19,855 nt of DNA from a virus. The stretch is from the IMG/VR virus record IMGVR_UViG_3300028835_000475. One strand, given 5' to 3'. A program made the translations under genes and the position numbers. Shown piece after piece: positions 1 to 19,855 of this stretch. The notes under the pieces are model-generated. The model was not told where the DNA came from. It was given only the letters and a program-made list of their open reading frames with translations, and did not search any database. Each line of letters starts with the position of its first letter. Positions within the stretch are counted from its first letter, which is position 1.

Positions 1-144
1 TAATAGAAACTAATCTTAATCGGATACTACAACAAGGCACTAATGATGCTAGGATACTTAATACCGCAATCTCATTCTCAGATAAAACAAGTAAATTTAT
101 AGTAAAAGAGGAATCAGAAAATAAGGGTTTTGTAGATTATCTAA
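1..144. repeat. Left copy of an exact 144-bp terminal direct repeat (identical to 19712-19855)
   Basis: Read directly: taatagaaactaatcttaatcgg...ggttttgtagattatctaa is present at both contig ends. Unit genome length is 19,711 bp. Confidence 0.95.
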
Positions 145-1304
145 CTATTACGGAAAAATTTACGGATAAACAATTAAATATATTTAATGAAATGATTCGA
201 GATGGTTGGGTTTCATTACTTGGTTCACGTAAGACCGGTAAGACATTCCTAATATCATCTGCAGCTAGTTATTTAGGCTCAAGAAAGACTCTTGAGATTC
301 ATGTTCTTTCAAGCAAAAAGGATACTGCAAGTCATATTATCACTCAAGTCATACAAATTGATGCAGAACATAAACTTAATCTTTTTAAAAGACCTGCAAA
401 AGAGCAAATTATTTTTAATAATAAGACCAGGATAAAAGTTCATTCCAATACTCTAGCGGATACTGGTACGTATGAGGCTGATATTCTTATAATTGATGAG
501 GCTCAAGAAGTCGATGAGTTAGTATGGAGTAAGATCATTCCACAGTTAGCCTCTGGGCGTAAGATGAGAGTATGGATATTTGGTACAGCAAAAGCTGGAA
601 CTCCATTCTATAATTTCTGGTTTGGCCTAAATCCTAAATTTAAGAAATTTGAGTTAGGAATGGAAGATGCTACTTGGGTTAAGGAAGAATCATGGGATGC
701 AATTAAATCCCTAATGTCTGATAGAATGGTTAGACAAGAATTAAGGATGGAATGGATAGAACCAGAGGGTGCATTCTTTAGATCCGAGGATATAGAGGCT
801 GCTTTCGAAGAGTATCCCGAAGGATTTAAAAGAGATTATTTAGAGATTGTTTGTGGTGTAGATTTTGGACTAGGACATGAAACAGTTATGGGAAATATTG
901 CTTATAGAAAAGAACAGATATATGAAATTGAGTCATGGGGTATGTTTAACCCTACAAGTGACATGATTATATCAAAAGTTATAGAATATGGTAATAAATA
1001 TAGTTCTTTATTTATTATGGAAGGATCACCGTTAGGAGGTTTTGTAAGAAGGGATGTAGCGGATTTACATGTTAGATTTAAAACCTCTAACTTTTCGGTT
1101 CATAAAGACAAGTATTGGTTTGCTTTAAGTTTTCTCTTAAATAATCATCTAATACATTTAAAGACTCAGAAATTGAAACAACAACTACTTCAATATGACG
1201 GAACTAAAATTGATGATGATTGGGTTGATATGTTATTACATGCAGCCTATTACTATTTTAATAAATATTATAAAAATAATGAGAAGTGGGTATTTAATAG
1301 ATGA
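1..1304 (+). CDS. terL: Terminase large subunit, C-terminal 434 codons of an ORF that opens at 19405 and crosses the contig junction
   Basis: First full codon starts at base 3, with no in-frame stop from 3 to the TGA at 1302-1304. Walker A LLGSRKTGKT, Walker B DILIIDEAQE, and RNaseH-like nuclease acidic motifs VCGVDFG and DDDWVDMLLHA. The track ORF 192..1304 is only the part after an internal Met. Confidence 0.85.
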   Translation, partial: IETNLNRILQQGTNDARILNTAISFSDKTSKFIVKEESENKGFVDYLTITEKFTDKQLNIFNEMIRDGWVSLLGSRKTGKTFLISSAASYLGSRKTLEIHVLSSKKDTASHIITQVIQIDAEHKLNLFKRPAKEQIIFNNKTRIKVHSNTLADTGTYEADILIIDEAQEVDELVWSKIIPQLASGRKMRVWIFGTAKAGTPFYNFWFGLNPKFKKFELGMEDATWVKEESWDAIKSLMSDRMVRQELRMEWIEPEGAFFRSEDIEAAFEEYPEGFKRDYLEIVCGVDFGLGHETVMGNIAYRKEQIYEIESWGMFNPTSDMIISKVIEYGNKYSSLFIMEGSPLGGFVRRDVADLHVRFKTSNFSVHKDKYWFALSFLLNNHLIHLKTQKLKQQLLQYDGTKIDDDWVDMLLHAAYYYFNKYYKNNEKWVFNR

Positions 1305-1672
1305 GTGAATTTAACGGACCATGGGTTAATACACCGGAATCATCAAATGTACTTAGATTCTGCTATGCTATGGCTAAGTTAATAGTGGACTTCCAAAATG
1401 GGAGTGAATACGCTTATTTCGTTCCTCCTTCTTATTATAAAGGTATGATAATGGCTTCAAGTAAGGGAAGATTTATATGGAATTATTTAAGAAAGGCTAA
1501 TAAACCATATAGATTAATAAGAGGTCCCTTTAAGAAACCTATTGGAGAGGTTCGAAGAGAAGTACCTTATAGGACTGAACCTGGAAGACCGAGAAGAAAG
1601 CTTGAGGAGGAAGTAATGCGGGGCCCCTTTAAAGAAAAGAAAGTTAAATGGGAAGGAGGCGAAGAATGGTAA
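1301..1672 (+). CDS. KTSC-domain protein with a basic, Pro/Arg/Lys-rich C-terminal tail
   Basis: ATGA overlap with the terL stop. SSNVLRFCYAMAKLIVDFQNGSEYAYFVPPSYYKGMIMASSKGRFIWNYLR fits the KTSC pattern (central YxY, SKG, aromatic). Recognised by eye only. Confidence 0.6.
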   Translation: MSEFNGPWVNTPESSNVLRFCYAMAKLIVDFQNGSEYAYFVPPSYYKGMIMASSKGRFIWNYLRKANKPYRLIRGPFKKPIGEVRREVPYRTEPGRPRRKLEEEVMRGPFKEKKVKWEGGEEW

Positions 1673-1858: not shown

Positions 1859-2990
1859 TCGAGATAAAACGGGTAAATATGCTGAGAATAAATATATACC
1901 ATCTCTATTAAAGATGGGTGCGGTTGATTATTCTAAGCCTGAGCATAGGGTAGCGAGACTTGATGAAGACCCAATTGCCGGCAATCTAGTTCTAAAGACC
2001 GCAGAATTGATTACAGCAAGACCTCCTATATTTCTTGATGAGAATGATAATGAACTCGATGAAACAAGGAATACATGGGAGGATAATCAATATAATAAGT
2101 TATTGAAGGAAGGTATTGAATCAACCCGAACACACGGTTATATTGTCTTAGAGCCTCTTAAAAAGCCTATAGATGATAGGGCCTGGATAATCCATGATTC
2201 ATCCGATATTCAAAAAATAAGATATAAGGACCTGAAAATAGAATCCTATACTATCTTGCCTAAACTTGAGGGGGGAATTGAGACTTCAATTGTCAGTGCA
2301 CCAGTTACAAGGGAATTATCACCTGAAGAAATTATTCATTATTATGTCGGTAGATATGATAGATCACTACAAGGATTGGGGATTATAAGAAGATGTTGGC
2401 ATGCTTTAGTTAGATTTACAGAAATATTTGAGTCTATGGCCATGTATGATTCAAGGATAGGAAATGGGATCTTATTAATTATTGTAGATCCAGAGCAATA
2501 TACTGCAGAATTAAATTCATTACATACCGCTGTGCGAAACCTTAACAATCGTAGGTATATGATTCTAAAGACCAGTGCAGAAGGGAACCCCCCAGACATG
2601 AAGTTCTTAGGCTCTACTGCTCCAATTGATTTCTCTACAGATTTAGAGACTTGCCTAAAGATTATTGCCGGTGCGAGTGGTTTTCCAGTTAGGTATCTTA
2701 TTGGAGATCCTAAGGGTGCCCTAAGTGCCGCAGGAGAGGATACAATTGCAGTATGGGAGAATCTTAAATCTATATTTGGAGAGTATAAAGATTTTATTAG
2801 AAAAGTTATTTCTTGGCAAGAAGATGGAGAAGCCTTAAATGAAAAGATTGCCAAGATTGAATTTGACGATGGCGGGCACCTTCCCGAAGCGGGAGAATTG
2901 CCCAAATCAGAAGAAGAGGGGGATGAATTAGACTCCCTTACTCCTATTGATATTATTAGACAACAAAAACAATTAAGAGGGATAAAATAA
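1845..2990 (+). CDS. Putative portal protein (381 aa)
   Basis: Canonical position between terminase and scaffold/capsid genes, suitable size, acidic C-terminus. No motif-level confirmation is possible by eye. Confidence 0.6.
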   Translation: MGFLNRDKTGKYAENKYIPSLLKMGAVDYSKPEHRVARLDEDPIAGNLVLKTAELITARPPIFLDENDNELDETRNTWEDNQYNKLLKEGIESTRTHGYIVLEPLKKPIDDRAWIIHDSSDIQKIRYKDLKIESYTILPKLEGGIETSIVSAPVTRELSPEEIIHYYVGRYDRSLQGLGIIRRCWHALVRFTEIFESMAMYDSRIGNGILLIIVDPEQYTAELNSLHTAVRNLNNRRYMILKTSAEGNPPDMKFLGSTAPIDFSTDLETCLKIIAGASGFPVRYLIGDPKGALSAAGEDTIAVWENLKSIFGEYKDFIRKVISWQEDGEALNEKIAKIEFDDGGHLPEAGELPKSEEEGDELDSLTPIDIIRQQKQLRGIK

Positions 2991-3473: not shown

Positions 3474-3887
3474 ATGGCAAACACAAAAATCAAAGATGTA
3501 GCTAATAAAATACCGTTAGGAGGTAATATGTTCGCAGAAGGATTAATACTTGGCGAAGCTATGAAAGCCGGAACCGGAGTCTATAAGTCCAATGCTACGA
3601 CAATTATGAAATGTGACGATCCAGAGATTTGTCTTGGAGTCTTAAAAGAGCATGAAGAATTTGATCTTGATACGGAAATAACAGCGGGAAAAAGAGGAGA
3701 TGTAGTTACTAAAGGAAATGTTGCAGCATTTATATTTCAAGATGGCGTTCATTATGCGGGATCTAATTACATGGCAGCTCAATTCGCAGCAGGTAAGTTT
3801 AGAGCTTCCGGAGGTGTTGGTTCGACGGCAAAACTCCTTAAAGACATTGCTGCTGATGATGATGTTGCCATTCTAAGAATTCTCTAA
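3474..3887 (+). CDS. Putative capsid decoration/cement protein, paralog 1 (DUF2190-like, 137 aa)
   Basis: Immediately upstream of the capsid gene. Shares GV[LM]KEHEEFDLDT[ED]ITA[GA]K.GD[VI]V..G and the 5' leader with the next gene. Gly/Ala/Val-rich small beta-protein pattern. Confidence 0.5.
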   Translation: MANTKIKDVANKIPLGGNMFAEGLILGEAMKAGTGVYKSNATTIMKCDDPEICLGVLKEHEEFDLDTEITAGKRGDVVTKGNVAAFIFQDGVHYAGSNYMAAQFAAGKFRASGGVGSTAKLLKDIAADDDVAILRIL

Positions 3888-3902: not shown

Positions 3903-4316
3903 ATGGCAAATACAAGTATTAGTGTTATATCTGAGGGAGGAGTAGCATTAGGAGAAAATAAGTTCAAAGAATCCCTATTATTACATGAAGCTATTAAGGC
4001 GGGAGAGGTTGTAAAAATAACTGCAAACGGATTAGAATTAGTTAATCTTGATGCGAATTTCTCGGGTGTAATGAAAGAACATGAGGAATTCGATTTGGAT
4101 ACTGATATTACAGCTGCAAAATATGGAGATATAGTCTCGGAAGGATATTGTGCAATATTTATTGAAAATCCTGCCGGTACTTATTATCCTGGTACATTTC
4201 TTTATAAAGGATTAGGAGGACGTATGTGTGTTACAGCAATGGGATCTCCATGGGCAATATTGGAGAGAACAATAGTTACTGGGGATCTCGTAGCCATAGT
4301 TAAACTCTTGAGGTAA
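3903..4316 (+). CDS. Putative capsid decoration/cement protein, paralog 2 (137 aa)
   Basis: Same length as 3474..3887, with a conserved core and a conserved start region (gaRattattATGGCAAAYACAA). Confidence 0.5.
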   Translation: MANTSISVISEGGVALGENKFKESLLLHEAIKAGEVVKITANGLELVNLDANFSGVMKEHEEFDLDTDITAAKYGDIVSEGYCAIFIENPAGTYYPGTFLYKGLGGRMCVTAMGSPWAILERTIVTGDLVAIVKLLR

Positions 4317-4321
4317 TCATC

Positions 4322-5269
4322 ATGGTAGAAATTAAAGGTGTAACAGAAAGAGAATGGAAAGGGATCGATAAACAAGTAGCTCAATTAATGCGGGAGCCTA
4401 TTGTATATCAAAATCTTCCAAGTGGTATGCAAGTAGGCAAGGGTAAAAACAAAGCAGAGTATTATCAAGCAACCGATGTCTTTTATGTAAATGAGGGTAA
4501 AAGATTTGCGTATGAAGATAGAAATGTCGGATCAAGAAAAGTAAGGGATAATGCAATTACTTATTTAACACTACCAATTCATATTGATGAGAAGGATATT
4601 GATGCCACAAGTGGTGAGGGTATCACTCCTCTATTAGTCACACATGAGATTGAATGTAGAGCTAAGATGCAAGAGAGAATCCAACACATTATCCTTCATG
4701 GAAGTGATCATTCTGGTGGTCGTGGTATCTGTACTTTTCAACAAGATGAGGAAGATGCCTATGAATTTGATGCTACTTTAACATGGACGACTACTGGTCA
4801 ATTTAGTTTAGAAGTAGACATAGCAAGAGGTCTTTTAAGAGCAGCCCATATAATGCCCCCATATAAATTATGGATGACTCCAGGTATTCAGCCAGAATTA
4901 AGAGGACTCTTCAATGCAGTAAGCGGAGCTTCTGATTGGAAAACCCTTTTAATGGATTGGATGAATTTTGGTGTAGTTACTGGTGAGAAAGGAGCAGAAC
5001 CATTTATTCCGACAATTGATCAGATTGTAGAAACCGATGCACTTTATGACGGAACTTTATCCACTTCGGAACAAGCCTTTCTATTATGGAAGGATGATGT
5101 TAATTGTAATTATGTGGCAGAAGCCTATCCTATCCACAGAGCAAATATTCCAAATAAACCATTTGAAGGTGATATCGATTATGCACTTCGATGGGCGGGA
5201 TGTTTCATTCCTAAAAATCCTAAGGGTGCAGTCTGTGTCGGCTCAGGTGATACAACTACAGCATACTAA
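4322..5269 (+). CDS. Major capsid protein, HK97-fold type (315 aa)
   Basis: Position after scaffold and decoration genes, SD GAGGTAATCATC before the ATG, and a strong terminator after it. The N-terminal TEREWKGIDKQVAQLMREPIVYQNL resembles the encapsulin/HK97-family N-terminal pattern, from memory only. Confidence 0.65.
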   Translation: MVEIKGVTEREWKGIDKQVAQLMREPIVYQNLPSGMQVGKGKNKAEYYQATDVFYVNEGKRFAYEDRNVGSRKVRDNAITYLTLPIHIDEKDIDATSGEGITPLLVTHEIECRAKMQERIQHIILHGSDHSGGRGICTFQQDEEDAYEFDATLTWTTTGQFSLEVDIARGLLRAAHIMPPYKLWMTPGIQPELRGLFNAVSGASDWKTLLMDWMNFGVVTGEKGAEPFIPTIDQIVETDALYDGTLSTSEQAFLLWKDDVNCNYVAEAYPIHRANIPNKPFEGDIDYALRWAGCFIPKNPKGAVCVGSGDTTTAY

Positions 5270-5282
5270 GAGTACTAATTAA

Positions 5283-5316
5283 ATAGTGGTTTGAGAGCCA
5301 CTATAAATTTTTTTTT
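5283..5316 (+). terminator. Hairpin plus T9 terminator after the capsid gene
   Basis: 7-bp stem atagtgg (5283-5289) / ccactat (5298-5304), 8-nt loop, then aaa and ttttttttt (5308-5316). Confidence 0.7.
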
Positions 5317-5834: not shown

Positions 5835-6226
5835 TTATAGCATCAGGTGGCTATGGGCATGAGACAACTTGGGAGAGCATTTGGAAGATAGAGGCTTCTG
5901 AGGTAGATTCTACTAGGTTTGGGCATATAAATGCCTATATAGGAGAGCAATTTAATTTCTATATTACAGGTGATGGTGGGACTGATATTACAGATACAAA
6001 AATCACAGGTATGTTAAAATCTCAAACTCATGCTCTTATATTCGAATTATATCTTACCTCGAAAGCGGGTAAGTTTCATTCATGGGATAATATATTTATC
6101 CACTTATTACAAATTGATTTTAAAGATCGTTATTTTAACTTAATTAAACAAGCTAGAGAAATCTTATCCGGAAATTTAAGAGTTATATCCGGAGAGTGGG
6201 AATCAAAAAAATTCGATTATGGGTGA
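5834..6226 (+). CDS. Hypothetical structural protein (~130 aa) with a probable non-canonical start (GTT 5834 or ATA 5837)
   Basis: The frame is open from 5831, but the first ATG/GTG/TTG is at 6011. SD GGTGA at 5826-5830 sits 3-6 nt before GTT/ATA. The 60 upstream codons look coding (VIASGGYGHETTWESIWKIEASEVDSTRFGHINAYIGEQFNFYITGDGGTDITDTKITG). Confidence 0.5.
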   Translation, partial: VIASGGYGHETTWESIWKIEASEVDSTRFGHINAYIGEQFNFYITGDGGTDITDTKITGMLKSQTHALIFELYLTSKAGKFHSWDNIFIHLLQIDFKDRYFNLIKQAREILSGNLRVISGEWESKKFDYG

Positions 6227-6230
6227 TTGA

Positions 6231-7238
6231 ATGGTTAATGACTTCTATACTGCCGATAAAGCTCATTTGCTTAAAGCCCTTAAGATGGCTACTTGGAGAC
6301 ATACTAATGCTAAACTACAAGCAGCGGAAGTCCAAGGCATAGACGAATATATAGCCGGAAGGTTATTTGAACCTATAGGCTTAACAGCCCCTTTAGCTAC
6401 GGGAGCAAGTTATTTACCAAAATTTAAAACTACCCAATATTTACCAGGTACTTGGGACGAATATTTATATTTCCAAACAGCTATGAATTTATATCCCGCA
6501 ATGGGAATATGCTCTACTACAGAAGCAACTCCGAATATTCATGATATAACTTTAAGAACTGGTCAAACCCCTACTAATCAAGGAAGACATTGGGAGAGGG
6601 AGAATCCCGTTAGTGCAGAAAGTGAAAGAATTGATATACTTGGAATGATGTTGAATTCATTGCATATTGAATGTTCAGAAGCATCCCAAATCGCAGTTCA
6701 GCATAATAAATGGGGTTGTTCTTATACCAAAAATACTGGTACTGATGATATTGCTGCTGCCACACTAACGGATAGACCTTTTAGATGGGAAGATTTCGCA
6801 TTTCCCACATTCACATACAATGGTGAGACGATAGAAGCCACTATTATAGGCTGGGCTTATGATGTAGTGAATACATTATATTTTACGGGATTAGATACAA
6901 CTAAGCGTTATTCTATAGGAAAGATTATTCCTTTAACTTATATAGTAACTACTCTCGAGACTACACCATTTGGCCATAATGTATATGAGTTAATAAGAAC
7001 CGATCTTGAAGATTATCTTACTGATGTAGATTTGGTAGTTAAAACCTCACGTAATACCACTACAGATTATGTTCAATGGACTCATGATAAAGTTTATTGC
7101 CAACCATTCGTTATTACTGCCGAGAAGGCTCCTGGGAGGGTGGAGAAATATTTACTTGTATTGAGTCAATTGAGTACGGGATCTATTGCTATTCAGGCAA
7201 AGGATCAATATAATAATAATTATTACGAGAATCCCTAG
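6231..7238 (+). CDS. Putative tail structural protein, possibly tail tube or adaptor (335 aa)
   Basis: SD GGGTGATTGA before the ATG and a position downstream of the head genes. No diagnostic motif. Confidence 0.4.
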   Translation: MVNDFYTADKAHLLKALKMATWRHTNAKLQAAEVQGIDEYIAGRLFEPIGLTAPLATGASYLPKFKTTQYLPGTWDEYLYFQTAMNLYPAMGICSTTEATPNIHDITLRTGQTPTNQGRHWERENPVSAESERIDILGMMLNSLHIECSEASQIAVQHNKWGCSYTKNTGTDDIAAATLTDRPFRWEDFAFPTFTYNGETIEATIIGWAYDVVNTLYFTGLDTTKRYSIGKIIPLTYIVTTLETTPFGHNVYELIRTDLEDYLTDVDLVVKTSRNTTTDYVQWTHDKVYCQPFVITAEKAPGRVEKYLLVLSQLSTGSIAIQAKDQYNNNYYENP

Positions 7239-7246
7239 GTGATAAT

Positions 7247-8017
7247 ATGTTTAGAAGAGAAGCTGATATTGAGGGAGGAAGGACTATTTATGGAAGAGAG
7301 TATATTAGTGCCCTTCAAAATAGGAATAAGACTAATCTCTTGGAGACATTAGGATCTGCACCCCTTATTGTAGAGGAGCTTATTCCGGAGGATTCTGAGT
7401 CTAGATATATAAGGGACCAAATGACTAAATCTCTTAGAAGAGGCGGAGCCTGGTTAATGGGTATGAGTGGCCTTAATAGAATTGCCGGTGGTTTATTACA
7501 GATAGCTCAACAATCTCAGAATAGATTTATGAGTAGAATTGAATATGAATTGCAATCTCTTTTTCTTCCACTGCAAGGATTTACTAGGGATATATTATTT
7601 CAATATGAATCATTTACTACTCAATATCGGACAGGCTCAGGACTCGGGGGTTTTGTTGGTTCCGTAATTGGATACTATTATCTAGGTCCAGTAGGAGCTC
7701 AATTATTGGGAGGACTCGGGTCTTTGGTTGGGGGTGCATTTGAGAGAGAAATCACGAGGGGAGGGGACCCAAGAGACCCAATATCGGGAGCCCCTTACGA
7801 AGCTGATTGGATTGAAGATTTGTTAGGACCCCCTCCTGATGGAAGGGATGAACGCGATCCAACTGGAGGCTTACCAGATATTACATTTGTAAGAGGAACT
7901 ATAACAATTCCGGGAGAGGTCATTGGAAGTGAGCATCGAAGACAGAGGAGGTTAGGTTTGAGAGTCATGGGGGAAATAAGTAGAACAGAAGGAACTATAT
8001 CGAGGAGGATAATATAA
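7247..8017 (+). CDS. Putative tape-measure-like or ejection protein with a glycine-zipper hydrophobic segment (256 aa)
   Basis: SD AGGTGATAAT before the ATG. GSGLGGFVGSVIGYYYLGPVGAQLLGGLGSLVGGAF contains GxxxG repeats. Locally higher GC. Confidence 0.4.
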   Translation: MFRREADIEGGRTIYGREYISALQNRNKTNLLETLGSAPLIVEELIPEDSESRYIRDQMTKSLRRGGAWLMGMSGLNRIAGGLLQIAQQSQNRFMSRIEYELQSLFLPLQGFTRDILFQYESFTTQYRTGSGLGGFVGSVIGYYYLGPVGAQLLGGLGSLVGGAFEREITRGGDPRDPISGAPYEADWIEDLLGPPPDGRDERDPTGGLPDITFVRGTITIPGEVIGSEHRRQRRLGLRVMGEISRTEGTISRRII

Positions 8018-8568
8018 TGGCCGGAGAAGTATTACTGAAGAATAATAGTAGTACAGGCTTCTATCTCTGTATTGAGAATAATAATGGTATTGCCAATAAT
8101 ACCCCTGGAGAAATTAAATTAGGTGGAGATACTGGTTTAGTATTAGGTACCGGATATATGTATTTTGATGATTTTATTAGTTTAGAATCATATGCTAGCA
8201 CTCCTACGAATGATGCTATGATAGGGTGGTCTTTTATTCAACATGGAACCATTTATCTAAAAACAAATGCTCAAACAGGTCAAGCCAAATTCACAAGTCT
8301 TTTATTAGCAGTTCACGCAACTGCGACACAGCAACAAAACTTTGAGAGATTCTTTGATGCACATCAAGCAGTTTCCACGTATCAATTATACGCTATTAGG
8401 CAATGGGCTTCCGAGACATTTAGGCAATTCTCTTATAATGCTACTTTATATAAATATATTGCCGTGATATTGAACGGTTATACTGTCATAGAGACAAATA
8501 GAGAAGGAAAGGATGTACAAACCTTAAAGGTTCAAATGATTCATTCATATAGAACAAATACACCATAG
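8017..8568 (+). CDS. Putative distal tail or baseplate protein (183 aa)
   Basis: TAATG overlap with the upstream gene. Its position before the large fibre gene matches the siphovirus TMP-Dit-Tal order. Positional evidence only. Confidence 0.35.
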   Translation: MAGEVLLKNNSSTGFYLCIENNNGIANNTPGEIKLGGDTGLVLGTGYMYFDDFISLESYASTPTNDAMIGWSFIQHGTIYLKTNAQTGQAKFTSLLLAVHATATQQQNFERFFDAHQAVSTYQLYAIRQWASETFRQFSYNATLYKYIAVILNGYTVIETNREGKDVQTLKVQMIHSYRTNTP

Positions 8569-8576
8569 GTGATTAA

Positions 8577-11337: not shown

Positions 11338-11577
11338 ATGAATATAAGACGTATATTTTTAAGTTTCTGTTTAGGTTTATGGGCAATTTGTGGATGGTTT
11401 ATGGTATTAATGTTCTTTTGGGTTTTGTTAATTAATAATGGAAGGGTTATATTTGATGCAACATTATGGAATGAATTTTATTTTGAATTTATAGGAGTCC
11501 ATATTTGCTTTATTTTAGTCATATTGGCTTTTATTTTAGAATTAAGGGAGATTTTCAATGAGAAGAGACGGAGGTGA
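11338..11577 (+). CDS. Small membrane protein, holin-like topology (79 aa)
   Basis: Two hydrophobic helices (IFLSFCLGLWAICGWFMVLMFFWVLLI and FIGVHICFILVILAFIL) and a basic C-terminus EKRRR. Confidence 0.5.
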   Translation: MNIRRIFLSFCLGLWAICGWFMVLMFFWVLLINNGRVIFDATLWNEFYFEFIGVHICFILVILAFILELREIFNEKRRR

Positions 11578-11583
11578 TAAAAA

Positions 11584-12006
11584 ATGGGAGCAAAAGCAGA
11601 AGCAACCTATAATTGGTTAAAATCTACTAAATTGACACCAATTCAGTTAATCTATGTATTTATAGCTATATTTGCCTTTATATTTATGGCAACCGATATT
11701 TTTGAGGCTTTACCTGATATAGTCAAAGTATCTATATATGGTTCTACGGTTCTTGTAGGCATGTTATTAGGAGTATCTATTTTTGATATTAAACAACTAG
11801 CTCAAGATATGAAAGCTATATATGAAGATAAAACGATGACTTTAGAACAGAAAATTAATGCTTATGGTAATATAGCTTTGAATGTATTGAATAAGATGGG
11901 AGCTGCATGGGAATTATACCATGATGAGCAATTCGAAAACGTAAAACAAGCTGAAATAGATGAGCTTAAAGCTGAGATTAAAGCACTCGAAAACAAATTA
12001 AAATAA
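11584..12006 (+). CDS. Membrane protein with a C-terminal coiled coil (140 aa)
   Basis: SD GGAGGTGATAAAAA before the ATG. Two hydrophobic helices (LIYVFIAIFAFIFMA and IYGSTVLVGMLLGVSIF) and a C-terminal EIDELKAEIKALENKLK. Confidence 0.55.
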   Translation: MGAKAEATYNWLKSTKLTPIQLIYVFIAIFAFIFMATDIFEALPDIVKVSIYGSTVLVGMLLGVSIFDIKQLAQDMKAIYEDKTMTLEQKINAYGNIALNVLNKMGAAWELYHDEQFENVKQAEIDELKAEIKALENKLK

Positions 12007-12505: not shown

Positions 12506-12693
12506 TATTTACCCTCTGCTTTTTTTCTAAATTCAATTAACTCTTTTGGAATTGGTATTGAAGAATCTCTACAAAACTTGCATTTTTTTAGATTAATAGG
12601 GACAAACATAAATAATCTAAATTCCACATTATTCTCTCCAACTAAATACCAATATAAGTTACATTCAGGACAATAATTTATTTCTTCGCTCAT
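12505..12693 (-). CDS. Zn-ribbon protein (62 aa)
   Basis: Paired Cys motifs CPEC ... CKFC. Overlapping stop/start with its neighbours. Confidence 0.6.
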   Translation of the reverse strand: MSEEINYCPECNLYWYLVGENNVEFRLFMFVPINLKKCKFCRDSSIPIPKELIEFRKKAEGK

Positions 12694-13103
12694 TTCAATT
12701 TCTCCAACTTTTCTAAATATTCGGCCATAACATTTTTATAATTGCGCGCATTTTGATCAAAACTTTTTATTTTATGCGCAGCTTCTTTTCGTTTTTGCAT
12801 AAATACTTTATTCATCTCTTCTTTAGAAAATCGATGATATTTTCCTTCAAATCCAGGCATAACTTTTTTCACAAATTCAATTAACCATCTTCGAAAAGAA
12901 GAATTTTGCGCGCACCATTCAAACATTTCATCTAAATTTAGATCTTCATCTATAACTGGTTTCGAGTCGATTGGTGTATTAGCTAATACCTTTCCAGATT
13001 GCCGTGGACTCGAACCACCGTGTCCAACCGATTTCTCGCCAATTATAGGTATAGGGGCTTTCGGAGGATGTAAGATATCCTCAATCTCTTTTTTAAGTGT
13101 CAT
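12690..13103 (-). CDS. Hypothetical protein (137 aa)
   Basis: 4-nt overlaps at both ends within the minus operon. No recognisable motif. Confidence 0.55.
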   Translation of the reverse strand: MTLKKEIEDILHPPKAPIPIIGEKSVGHGGSSPRQSGKVLANTPIDSKPVIDEDLNLDEMFEWCAQNSSFRRWLIEFVKKVMPGFEGKYHRFSKEEMNKVFMQKRKEAAHKIKSFDQNARNYKNVMAEYLEKLEKLK

Positions 13104-13327
13104 CTTCTTTTAAAACTTCTTTTATATATCCAAGAACACCCATCAATCCAGTTCACATAAACTAAAATATCATGTGCTCTATTAGGTGTAAAATAAATTT
13201 TCTCATCACAATCTCCAAAAAAAATGTTAAATCCTAATGATTCTAACTCCTTTTCAATATCATCCCGATAATTATATCTTTCAAAAATCTCAATTACTAT
13301 TTTTTCTAAATCATCTTTCTCACTCAT
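13100..13327 (-). CDS. Hypothetical protein (75 aa)
   Basis: ATGA-type overlaps with both neighbours. Confidence 0.5.
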   Translation of the reverse strand: MSEKDDLEKIVIEIFERYNYRDDIEKELESLGFNIFFGDCDEKIYFTPNRAHDILVYVNWIDGCSWIYKRSFKRR

Positions 13328-13770
13328 TTCAGATAATCCTCCAATATAATCCTGATCATTTCAGAATATGGTAGATCCATAACTTTTACTACTTTATCTA
13401 GATTTTCTTTTGTCTTATGACTAATCCTTACCGTTATAACTACCGGATAATGCATTTTTCTATTTGAGCAATCTCCTTCATAATACTCAAAATCATTTTT
13501 ATAGAATCTTCTATTACAACTCTCACAAACCAAAGCAATATACTCCCCAGTAGAATGGTTATGATGGAATACTAGATGTTCATTCTCTTTTTCACATTTA
13601 GAACATACTAATTTCCCTTTAATAAACTTTAAAGGAATCCTTAACATCCTAGCTTTCCCAACAATTTGGGATACATAACTTTCGGATACGTTAAGGGAAT
13701 CAGCTATCTGCTTTTGGGTTTTATTATTCTGATAGATTTCTTCCAAAATTGTATTTTGTTTTGACTTCAT
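13324..13770 (-). CDS. Three-domain protein: N-terminal HTH, endonuclease-VII-like HNH zinc module, C-terminal ribbon-helix-helix
   Basis: HTH KTQKQIADSLNVSESYVSQIVGKA. CSKCEKENEHLVFHHNHSTGEYIALVCESCN matches the CxxC...hxhDHDHxTGxhRGLLCxxCN endonuclease VII pattern. RHH-like VITVRISHKTKENLDKVVKVMDLPYSEMIRIILEDYL. I prefer the ATG at 13770 to the GTG at 13782. Confidence 0.6.
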   Translation of the reverse strand: MKSKQNTILEEIYQNNKTQKQIADSLNVSESYVSQIVGKARMLRIPLKFIKGKLVCSKCEKENEHLVFHHNHSTGEYIALVCESCNRRFYKNDFEYYEGDCSNRKMHYPVVITVRISHKTKENLDKVVKVMDLPYSEMIRIILEDYLK

Positions 13771-13815
13771 ATAAAGATTCACTTAAGTTAAGTAAAGGTA
13801 CATCAAATATAAATT

Positions 13816-18398: not shown

Positions 18399-18415
18399 AT
18401 TTCATCAATCCTTGT

Positions 18416-18435
18416 ATGACAATATGACGCATGAC
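18416..18435. promoter_or_regulatory. Three closely spaced ATGAC (minus strand GTCAT) repeats between an AT-rich TATA-like element and the early-operon start
   Basis: ATGAC at 18416-18420, 18424-18428 and 18431-18435. ATATTATAA (minus strand) lies just upstream at about 18438-18446. Confidence 0.4.
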
Positions 18436-18525
18436 TTATAATATTTTCTACCTTAAAATATTCTTTATATAATAAATTAGTTCGTACTGATAAAACAACA
18501 AATGAAATAATAATAATTATTATAT

Positions 18526-18592
18526 ACTAGACCTTCATCCACTGTTGTAAGGGGCTAACAATAAGACTAGACCTAGAAGGGGCTAATTTTTT
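18526..18592. repeat. Non-coding block with a duplicated bipartite motif ACTAGACCT ... AAGGGGCTAA, ending in T6
   Basis: ACTAGACCT at 18526-18534 and 18566-18574. AAGGGGCTAA at 18549-18558 and 18577-18586. T6 at 18587-18592. Locally GC-richer than the flanks. Confidence 0.6.
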
Positions 18593-18669
18593 CACGCTGA
18601 GGAAAATCAAAAGTCAGACCGCACACGAAATGATGCAGTCAATATTCCTATATTAATCTACACCGTATA

Positions 18670-18677
18670 TTTAAATA
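18670..18677 (+). promoter_or_regulatory. TATA box TTTAAATA for a leaderless transcript starting at about 18701
   Basis: Matches the archaeal TTTAWATA consensus, lies 23 nt before the ATG at 18701, and there is no SD. Confidence 0.45.
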
Positions 18678-18700
18678 CTCTATCATATATACTATATATA

Positions 18701-18871
18701 ATGATGTCTGAAAATATGGCCTATGAATTTATAGATGCTAAAGAGAAATTCCGCTTATTAGGATATGAGCTGGTAGGCACTAAAGACATTAATGAAGAGA
18801 TTATTTATATGGTAAAGAATTCATCTATTCAGTGCAAAAAAATTGCACTGGACAACAATATAAAAATATAA
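18701..18871 (+). CDS. Hypothetical 56-aa protein (not in the track)
   Basis: Hand translation: MMSENMAYEFIDAKEKFRLLGYELVGTKDINEEIIYMVKNSSIQCKKIALDNNIKI. Appropriately spaced TATA box upstream. Confidence 0.4.
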   Translation: MMSENMAYEFIDAKEKFRLLGYELVGTKDINEEIIYMVKNSSIQCKKIALDNNIKI

Positions 18872-18905
18872 TTCCTGGTAAAAGAAAAAAATATCAATGA
18901 TTGAA

Positions 18906-19091
18906 TTAAAAATCTTGATTAAGTGTCCCACAATCTGGGCAAAACCAACCCAACGTAACCCATCGACTTGAATATCTTGGTTTCCCATCAGACCCCCTCT
19001 TAATTAATGGTTCCCGATAATATGCTCTACGCATAAACGTAGGAATATATTTCGAACTACAATTGTGACATTCCTGTTTTCTAATTGACAT
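18906..19091 (-). CDS. Zn-ribbon protein (61 aa from MSIRKQECHNC)
   Basis: CHNC ... CPDC. The track's N-terminal extension to 19157 covers promoter and operator sequence and is hydrophobic and low-complexity. Confidence 0.55.
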   Translation of the reverse strand: MSIRKQECHNCSSKYIPTFMRRAYYREPLIKRGSDGKPRYSSRWVTLGWFCPDCGTLNQDF

Positions 19092-19116
19092 AATTATAAT
19101 ATTGAAATTTAGACAA

Positions 19117-19124
19117 ATATTTAA
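19117..19124 (-). promoter_or_regulatory. TATA-like box TTAAATAT (minus strand), 25 nt before the ATG at 19091
   Basis: The plus strand reads atatttaa. No SD before the ATG. Confidence 0.4.
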
Positions 19125-19126
19125 GG

Positions 19127-19157
19127 TTATCGTATACAATAGGATTATCGTATACAA
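19127..19157. promoter_or_regulatory. Two 13-bp direct repeats TTATCGTATACAA (18-bp period), each with the palindrome GTATAC
   Basis: Copies at 19127-19139 and 19145-19157. On the minus strand they lie immediately upstream of the TATA-like box at 19117-19124. Confidence 0.6.
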
Positions 19158-19210
19158 ATCAATAGGAAAAATAACTAGAATTTCAAATTTATAGTGATAA
19201 TTATTAACAA

Positions 19211-19306
19211 ATTACTAATTACTAATCTATTTTAGATCTTAAAAGTTATACTACTATATTTTGGTTCGCAAAAGTTGTAATAGAATTTGGATCGGAAAAT
19301 TACTAA
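19211..19306. repeat. AT-rich intergenic segment with short iterated motifs
   Basis: ATTACTA in tandem at 19211-19224 and ATTACTAA again at 19299-19306. TTGGWTCGSAAAA at 19261-19273 and 19288-19300. Confidence 0.45.
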
Positions 19307-19320
19307 ATTATCATACCCTT

Positions 19321-19368
19321 AATACTCGGAATAGTATTATTCAATAATCATACTTATAAGAGTATGAT
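19321..19368. promoter_or_regulatory. Two palindromic operators with core ATACT-N6-AGTAT upstream of the late-operon TATA-like box
   Basis: aatact cggaat agtatt at 19321-19338. atcatact tataag agtatgat at 19347-19368, with perfect 8-bp arms. Confidence 0.55.
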
Positions 19369-19372
19369 CCAT

Positions 19373-19380
19373 ATTATAAT
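19373..19380 (+). promoter_or_regulatory. TATA-like box ATTATAAT, 24 nt before the terminase ATG
   Basis: No SD before the ATG at 19405. The same ATATTATAA string occurs upstream of the early operon. Confidence 0.4.
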
Positions 19381-19404
19381 CATAAGAAATTAATATTGTC
19401 TAAT

Positions 19405-19855
19405 ATGGCTAGAAAATCTTTTACACCCCTCATAAAGACCACACTAGAAACATTTCCAAACCTTAAGGACAATTACAAGAAATTAGCTGAAAAGGTTGGA
19501 TGTTGTGTTAAAACAATAAAAAGATATTTTAAGAGTTTAGAATTAAAAGTCCAATTGGACAATCAAGGTAATCTTTTTAGCCAGGAGGGAGGTTCAGTCT
19601 CTCCTTCCTCCATTACTAATCAAGACATTTCTAATATTATAGAACTTCCCGATCAGCAAGCTCTTCTATTAGATAAGTCAATTTCCCCTAAATTATTAAA
19701 TATGGTTGGGCTAATAGAAACTAATCTTAATCGGATACTACAACAAGGCACTAATGATGCTAGGATACTTAATACCGCAATCTCATTCTCAGATAAAACA
19801 AGTAAATTTATAGTAAAAGAGGAATCAGAAAATAAGGGTTTTGTAGATTATCTAA
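19405..19855 (+). CDS. terL: Terminase large subunit, N-terminal portion with HTH domain (continues at base 1 through the terminal repeat)
   Basis: ATG at 19405, open to the contig end, and in frame with 3..1304 through the 144-bp overlap, giving 536 aa in total. HTH-like NYKKLAEKVGCCVKTIKRYFKSL. Confidence 0.8.
   Translation, partial: MARKSFTPLIKTTLETFPNLKDNYKKLAEKVGCCVKTIKRYFKSLELKVQLDNQGNLFSQEGGSVSPSSITNQDISNIIELPDQQALLLDKSISPKLLNMVGLIETNLNRILQQGTNDARILNTAISFSDKTSKFIVKEESENKGFVDYL
19712..19855. repeat. Right copy of the exact 144-bp terminal direct repeat
   Basis: Identical to 1-144 when read base by base. Confidence 0.95.

Follow-up and report, generated by a model that had tools for sequence, protein, structure and literature searches.

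A probable new verdandivirus genome with TATA-like octamers before unit-first genes and Shine-Dalgarno motifs on internal cistrons

Introduction

Verdandiviruses, a family already in the literature, are small tailed viruses with Asgard archaea as hosts and belong to the siphovirus-like members of Caudoviricetes (bioRxiv 10.1101/2021.07.29.453957). VerdaV1, VerdaV4, and VerdaV5 were named as Lokiarchaeia viruses, and VerdaV2 and VerdaV3 as Thorarchaeia viruses (bioRxiv 10.1101/2021.07.29.453957). A conserved head module next to divergent tail and early modules was described as the family pattern, the HK97 fold of the major capsid protein (MCP) rests on the same paper, and the tape measure protein has a median length of 259 amino acids (bioRxiv 10.1101/2021.07.29.453957). 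The words promoter, TATA, Shine-Dalgarno, and leaderless are absent from this founding preprint (bioRxiv 10.1101/2021.07.29.453957). The subject here is the IMG/VR virus record IMGVR_UViG_3300028835_000475, a stretch of 19,855 nt that was analyzed whole and is called the window, and the expression signals of its genes, above all three A/T octamers upstream of the genes starting at 18701(+), 19091(-), and 19405(+).

In Sulfolobus, first cistrons are leaderless and distal cistrons carry Shine-Dalgarno motifs (SDs) (PMC7531240). The archaeal 16S rRNA 3' end is AUCACCUCCU (PMC7531240), and SD pairing was judged against this consensus, which may not be the 3' end of the host itself. Archaeal promoters recognized by TBP/TFB have a TATA box of 7-8 bp (TTTAWATA-like) centred ~26-27 nt upstream of the transcription start. 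An mRNA with a 5' UTR of at most 5 nt counts as leaderless, and an SD is expected 3-13 nt upstream of the start codon.

With good confidence, the window is read here as a new verdandivirus genome, complete at 19,711 bp and with Lokiarchaeia virus VerdaV4 as its nearest named relative, in which host TBP/TFB and RNA polymerase would use the TATA octamers, unit-first genes with such an octamer close to the start codon would be leaderless, and internal cistrons carry SDs. The directly supported parts are family membership, targeting by Asgard-type CRISPR arrays, SD enrichment, and conservation of the TATA octamer position. The kind of virus and a genome size of ~20 kb were already published (bioRxiv 10.1101/2021.07.29.453957); what is new is this genome.

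Results

Positions 1-144 of the window are identical to positions 19712-19855. This terminal overlap of 144 nt is expected for a circular or terminally redundant assembly and leaves a unique genome of 19,711 bp, in agreement with the 19.7 kb given by an earlier sequence-only reading of this DNA; the size is known for the family. The genome was compared with related loci L001-L011, in which L009 is VerdaV4, L010 is VerdaV1, L011 is VerdaV2, and L005 is VerdaV5. The large terminase (TerL) is 92% identical to that of VerdaV4, 78% to that of VerdaV1, and 75% to that of the Thorarchaeia virus VerdaV2. Taking VerdaV5 in as well, identity to the four named viruses is 75-92% for TerL, 80-94% for the portal, and 77-84% for the MCP, that is 75-94% over the three structural proteins. 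Against the eleven related loci, identity is 71-94% for the portal, scaffold, KTSC protein, and MCP, and similarity of the tail and early modules to these loci is practically undetectable. The window was rejected as VerdaV5, which is L005 with 20,002 bp, and as VerdaV6, for which the listed gene order differs.

Shared with the verdandiviruses are a circularly assembled genome of ~20 kb (published range tested about 19.5-20.6 kb, here 19,711 bp), the gene order (TerL, KTSC, portal, scaffold, capsid-stabilisation protein, HK97 MCP, tail tube, short tape measure protein, adhesin), arrays of small Zn-finger/helix-turn-helix (HTH) genes together with a PAPS reductase, and targeting by the same Asgard type I-E array family. 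Replication and transcription enzymes are likewise not encoded; a Pfam and PHROGs screen of the 21 largest open reading frames (ORFs) gave no polymerase, primase, or RNA polymerase domain. The genome differs in not being identical to any described one, in its tail and early modules, in a tandem duplicate of the capsid-stabilisation gene, and in an extra 61-amino-acid ORF between the KTSC and portal genes. Small tailed archaeal viruses are also found in methanogens and haloarchaea, for example the psiM2-like viruses (~26 kb). They have in common with this genome an HK97 MCP, a head module with portal and TerL, a siphovirus-like tail, and reliance on host transcription, but there is no detectable similarity in the phage collection, the genome here is smaller, and the host phylum is another.

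No bacterial relative was found by a TerL search of INPHARED or by a scan of 185,579 GTDB species (one genome each, bacterial and archaeal). The best match to any deposited phage in INPHARED had at most 28% identity over one third of TerL, and the GTDB scan, which bears on prophage copies as well, returned zero bacteria and one match, a 3.3-kb contig in an archaeal metagenome-assembled genome (MAG). All matches of the PAPS reductase in a homologue search lay on small, virus-sized contigs. No tRNA was found in a scan of the window, and an Rfam scan of the whole window at E <=1 gave no match. The low GC and AGA/AGG arginine codons noticed earlier were confirmed (G+C 34.0%; AGA/AGG 77% of Arg codons). 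In the proteome, which had been described as rich in Zn ribbons and ribbon-helix-helix (RHH) domains, eight small proteins have two CxxC pairs each, and the RHH matches are weak (7e-4 in one gene, 5e-3 in another).

Asgard spacers are listed in Table S4 of bioRxiv 10.1101/2021.07.29.453957. The repeat of array 10H_NODE_88689 is the same as in an Asgard MAG, and spacer_16 of this array was used to assign VerdaV1 to Lokiarchaeia (bioRxiv 10.1101/2021.07.29.453957). This published spacer (10H_NODE_88689 CRISPR_13 spacer_16) matches the KTSC-domain gene of the window at 1379..1410 (+) in 30/32 positions; the best match of shuffled spacers to the window had at least 9 mismatches. A metagenome scan for the 10H_NODE_88689 repeat gave 48 loci, from which 540 spacers were extracted. 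Four spacers from four same-repeat type I-E arrays match the window in TerL, the KTSC gene, and the portal at 4-5/32 mismatches, and the mismatch distribution of the remaining spacers starts at 7 and is centred at 10-15. The protospacers include 708-739 in TerL, 1492..1523 (+; L027_sp26, 5/32 mismatches, from an array of the LCGC14 marine-sediment metagenome), and two overlapping ones in the portal gene at 2665..2720 (-; L038_sp2 with 5 mismatches and L029_sp2 with 4). Also among the four is L017_sp25, which matches VerdaV1 32/32. None of the spacers compared matched the window perfectly. The small tailed archaeal virus that had been proposed from the letters alone was thus borne out by the homology of TerL, portal, and MCP to verdandiviruses and by the Asgard spacer matches.

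Array L017 lies on a 314-kb contig and adjoins cas1e and cas2e; named homologues of its Cas2e come from Promethearchaeota, Helarchaeota, Odinarchaeota, and Lokiarchaeota. At 12532-13683 (-) of this contig, a 383-amino-acid Cas2e is fused to an RNase H-like (PF13482) domain, as found in Asgard type I-E loci, and the Cas2e-PF13482 fusion is kept across homologues from Promethearchaeota, Helarchaeota, and Odinarchaeota. The GTDB match mentioned above is L008 (JAUWWH010000199.1, 3,266 bp), a verdandivirus TerL-KTSC-portal fragment with 84% TerL identity that was binned in a 'Candidatus Bathyarchaeota' MAG. This is probably a mis-binning, or else a hint of a wider host range.

The expression signals center on a control region at 18399-19404, which lies between two divergent operons and also carries two small stand-alone genes. 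The leftward operon of small (early) genes extends from 18398 to 12023. The rightward structural operon of ~12 kb has TerL at 19405 as its first gene, crosses the junction, and ends at 12006. Three octamers were read directly at the places where they had been reported, with gaps of 23, 25, and 24 nt. TTTAAATA (18670..18677, +) stands 23 nt before ATG 18701 and has 0 mismatches to TTTAWATA. It precedes a 56-amino-acid gene (MMSENM..., 18701..18871, +) with homologues in VerdaV5 (46% identity) and L007 (33%). TTAAATAT (19124..19117, -) stands 25 nt before ATG 19091 of a 61-amino-acid Zn-ribbon protein gene (18906..19091, -), whose start is supported by the VerdaV5 homologue; the octamer shifted by one position, CTTAAATA (19125..19118, -), stands 26 nt before this ATG and is closer to the consensus (1 mismatch to TTTAWATA). 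The palindromic TATA-like ATTATAAT (19373..19380, +) lies 24 nt before TerL ATG 19405. TTG 19396 was rejected as an alternative TerL start because L004 and L007 have it out of frame. The claim that these three genes lack an SD also held, as not even a 4-mer of GGAGGTGAT occurs at -22..-3 of any of them.

That 19405 opens a transcription unit was likewise upheld, with the addition that it is the start of TerL, which wraps past the window end to 1304. The list of three genes was incomplete; a fourth case had been missed, TTTATATT (13806..13813, -), a TATA candidate 23 nt before GTG 13782, with a 54-nt gap upstream and no SD. The gene that begins there (13324-13782, -) encodes a single 152-amino-acid protein with three parts, an HTH (Sigma70_r4, 6.7e-8), a Zn module of the endonuclease VII type (1.1e-5), and, at the C-terminus, an RHH (7e-4). 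The leftward operon opens with 18398(-), a gene outside the leaderless geometry. Its TATA-like TATTATAA (18436..18443, -) lies 37 nt before ATG 18398 and is followed by the SD-like GGATTGATG; TATTATAA probably drives the leftward early operon, whose short leader would contain GGATTGATG. Four or five candidate promoters lie in the control region. At 19127..19157, immediately upstream of the 19091(-) TATA candidate, are two exact 13-nt direct repeats TTATCGTATACAA, 18 nt apart, with no other 0-mismatch copies in the window; they are likely candidates for an operator, a binding site for a small DNA-binding viral protein.

Base composition limits what the octamers can say by themselves. A+T makes up 72-79% of the control region and 80-82% of the 60 nt upstream of each of the three genes. 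All-A/T octamers that end at one of three set positions turned up at 16% of noncoding positions in the real sequence and in 21-25% of shuffles, and the joint P for the three genes is ~0.004-0.016 for a criterion picked after the data were seen. Alone, the octamers are only modestly better than chance in A+T-rich DNA. They gain support from relatives, in which the 18701 and 19091 orthologues have diverged spacers and yet retain a TATA octamer at 23-24 nt from the ATG. For the 18701 gene, L007 has an orthologue with the same TTTAAATA at the same 23-nt gap but another spacer, and VerdaV5 has one with ACTTATAA at 24 nt; for the 19091 gene, GTTTATAT lies 23 nt ahead of the ATG of the VerdaV5 homologue. 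About 10 non-homologous SD-less unit-start genes in the relatives have TTTAWATA (<=1 mismatch) at 21-23 nt, and the family-wide TATA profile peaks at gaps of 21-26 nt. For TerL, ATTATAA(A/T) occurs 20-25 nt before the ATG in L001, L004/L007, and L009. A 37-nt peak in a gene-caller-free TATA histogram was rejected, as it came from the conserved 3' coding sequence of TerL in the relatives; relatedness therefore inflates such counts.

The SDs of the internal genes that had been quoted from the sequence all exist. AGGTGAT at 7237-7243 (+) is followed by AAT and lies 3 nt before ATG 7247, AGGTGAT at 8567-8573 (+) is followed by TAA and lies 3 nt before ATG 8577, and the full 9-nt GGAGGTGAT at 11570-11578 (+) is followed by AAAAA and lies 5 nt before ATG 11584. 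A 5-mer or longer of GGAGGTGAT was found in 18/41 genes against 6.2% of coding-strand windows (binomial P = 9e-12). Calling these motifs GGTGAT-type describes only part of them, since 7 genes have a GTGAT-containing motif and GGAGG-type SDs, in 10-11 genes, are at least as common. Family-wide, SDs were found in 50% of internal genes against 20% of unit-start genes (Fisher P = 1.7e-5). Internal cistrons often overlap, with gaps of -1, -4, and -8 nt. The promoter-proximal genes 18398, 17789, and 5373 instead have a short leader and an SD. The motif TTGTCTAA was rejected as an enriched element (13 matches in the window against 11 +/- 3.4 expected).

The same layout was seen in Lokiarchaeota genome fragments. 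In contig L127, the operon-first genes 3172, 3469, and 16111 have TTTAAATA, TTTATAAA, and TTTAATTA 21-22 nt before the ATG; genes 3172 and 16111 lack an SD, and gene 3469 has only a 4-mer (GAGG). The internal genes 4140, 4478, 5420, and 17157 have GGAGG, GAGGTGA, or GGAGGT. Over the Lokiarchaeota fragments (L127 3172-6409 and 16111-18458, L128, and L017), a TATA octamer precedes the ATG of SD-less operon-first genes by 20-26 nt, and the SDs of internal genes are GGAGG or GGTGA(T). SDs of at least 5 nt were found in 10/44 genes of these fragments, a small sample, vs 18/41 in the virus, and the lower share in the fragments would fit the denser operons of the virus.

The control region also contains a conserved noncoding unit at 18517..18592 (+), which consists of TATA-like TTATATAC, 22 nt that include ATCCACTGTTGT, then AAGGGGCTAA, 18 nt, GAAGGGGCTAA, and T6. 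The unit is also present in VerdaV4 at about 26-108 (reverse strand) and in VerdaV5 at 6181-6243 (reverse strand), in both with the opposite orientation relative to TerL, and both GGGGCT copies are GGGGTT in VerdaV5. It has two AAGGGGYT direct repeats and no ATG inside. Its fold was not better than that of shuffles on either strand, it had no Rfam match, and a loose search of IMG/VR for the AAGGGGYT-repeat pattern gave 65 mostly unrelated matches and no new verdandivirus copy. A mini-CRISPR was rejected because the 28-nt period is too short. Candidate roles of the unit are a small RNA, an operator or iterons, and a pac or replication site.

TerL (536 amino acids; phrog_2, 9e-25) is split by the window ends into 19405..19855 (+) and 145..1304 (+). 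It has an N-terminal extension of ~165 amino acids (19405-19855 and 145-191) with an HTH-like segment ahead of the Walker A motif. In the genome, no gene was recognised as a separate small terminase, and the extension may be a fused DNA-recognition domain. The MCP gene lies at 4322-5269, with two 137-amino-acid capsid-stabilisation paralogues upstream (3474-3887 and 3903-4316). This decoration gene is in tandem duplicate, with ATTATT-ATGGCAAA as the start context of both copies. Identity to relatives is 55-89% for the second copy and only 36-40% for the first, and the described relatives compared have a single copy. Directly after the MCP gene, a hairpin (TAGTGG...CCACTA) is followed by T9 (5284..5316, +), the sole sense-strand T run of at least 6 in the entire 12-kb structural operon, which suggests a candidate terminator or attenuator that would boost head-gene transcripts. 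A homologue of a 124-amino-acid VerdaV4 protein aligns from 5861 (tblastn 3e-28) within 5837-6226. In-frame ATG, GTG, and TTG are absent before 6011, and the -1 frame has an ATG at ~5855 with an AGGTGG SD; a 1-nt assembly error, a frameshift, or a non-canonical start could each explain this. The 256-amino-acid gene at 7247-8017 (+) is a putative tape measure protein gene by position, with a weak tape measure PHROG match (E = 0.007), and ATG 8577 (+) begins the gene of a 919-amino-acid adhesin/hub-like protein.

Discussion

The genome encodes no RNA polymerase, and host TBP/TFB and RNA polymerase must therefore use its A/T-rich TATA boxes. Most likely these factors bind the TATA octamers. An octamer that ends 21-26 nt before the start codon, as at 18701, 19091, 19405, and 13782, would place the transcription start at or a few nucleotides from the start codon, and the mRNAs of these four genes would be leaderless. 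We infer TBP/TFB binding, transcription start sites, and leaderless status; for the 18701, 19091, and 19405 genes, leaderless transcription is predicted from the geometry and the absent SD. Translation of the downstream cistrons, which are tightly packed or overlapping, would rely on motifs derived from GGAGGTGAT that pair as SDs with the 16S rRNA 3' end, and genes 18398, 17789, and 5373 would use their short SD-bearing leader in place of a leaderless start. Such a layout resembles that of Sulfolobus/Saccharolobus, where leaderless first cistrons go with GGTGA-type SDs on distal ones (PMC7531240). Shared with it are SD-less unit-first genes that have a TATA octamer ~22-25 nt off the start codon and SDs complementary to AUCACCUCC on internal, often overlapping cistrons. 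It differs in the Asgard host, in the use of the full GGAGGTGAT range, and in GGAGG being as frequent as GTGAT.

Several observations weigh against this layout, and most of them bear on the alternative that the virus is an archaeal verdandivirus in which the three octamers are mere A/T-rich intergenic DNA, promoters lie elsewhere, and SD-less leaders are translated. In 72-82% A+T, each octamer is 16-25% likely at its position by chance. The positional enrichment across the family is modest (P = 0.03 and 0.015) in sequences that share descent, and no clear or shared B recognition element, A-rich or purine-rich, was seen directly upstream of the octamers, where 'ATA' or 'GTA' often appears. TerL is the weakest of the three cases: its octamer is poor against the TATA consensus (3 mismatches to TTTAWATA), the TATA-like motif moves by up to 13 nt among relatives, with gaps that span 20 to 33 nt (33 nt in L002), and the 9 nt TTGTCTAAT directly before the ATG are conserved and could be a leader or an operator. 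Genes 18398, 17789, and 5373 clearly have SD-bearing leaders. Chance octamers are still an unlikely explanation, given the octamers kept at 23-24 nt in orthologues of the 18701 and 19091 genes with diverged spacers, the ~10 non-homologous SD-less unit-start genes with the motif at 21-23 nt, and the same spacing at Lokiarchaeota operon-first genes. Reviews that call SDs 'not prevalent' in Lokiarchaea are a further point against the layout; these statements rest on a logo of all annotated starts, and the layout of the Lokiarchaeota fragments, as read from their sequence, appears to soften the conflict. As for the host, the spacer matches are imperfect (2-5 mismatches) and located in conserved head genes, and the tie to the host that they provide is firmer for the family than for this strain.

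The imperfect spacers, the sole GTDB species-genome match in a Bathyarchaeota MAG (L008), and a TATA and SD grammar that is generic to archaea could all be accommodated by an archaeal virus with a non-Asgard host, for example Bathyarchaeia of the same sediments. This is very improbable, as a 3-kb contig is easily mis-binned, the repeat of the spacer arrays is identical to that of Asgard MAG arrays, the Cas2e beside one array has its best named homologues in Asgard lineages, and L017_sp25 is identical to VerdaV1 over its 32 positions. A bacteriophage whose octamers are sigma70 -10 boxes with SD-less leaders is effectively refuted. ATTATAAT does contain TATAAT (19375-19380), and a weak 9/12 sigma70-like site ends 14 nt before ATG 18701, but such sites (-35 and -10 hexamers spaced by 16-18 nt) are not enriched in the window (14 vs 9.1 +/- 3.6 expected in shuffles) and none is well placed; the best one points away from TerL, and none lies ahead of TerL on the + strand. 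Low-GC bacteria also commonly have GGAGG SDs and AGR codons, and these traits do not separate archaea from such bacteria; the decision comes from the CRISPR and homology evidence, which indicates Asgard archaea, together with the lack of any deposited phage above 28% identity over a third of TerL and of any match in a bacterial genome. Expression grammar alone is a weak host argument in A+T-rich DNA. Signal grammar read by eye can reveal the right host domain, and in such DNA it is convincing only with homology or CRISPR evidence.

With this genome, the family gains a complete member whose tail and early-gene modules are both new, and the signals of the genome are apparently the first explicit promoter and ribosome-binding-site layout described for verdandiviruses. 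The compact control region at 18399-19404 would be a convenient substrate for in vitro work with Asgard TBP, TFB, and RNA polymerase. More tentatively, and with somewhat less than even confidence, verdandiviruses and their Lokiarchaeial hosts may share a two-part grammar of leaderless TATA-proximal first cistrons and GGAGGTGAT-type SDs inside operons, with the unit at 18517-18592 as a virus-specific small RNA or a new packaging or replication site. If true, Asgard ribosomes would regularly use SD pairing despite what reviews state on Lokiarchaea.

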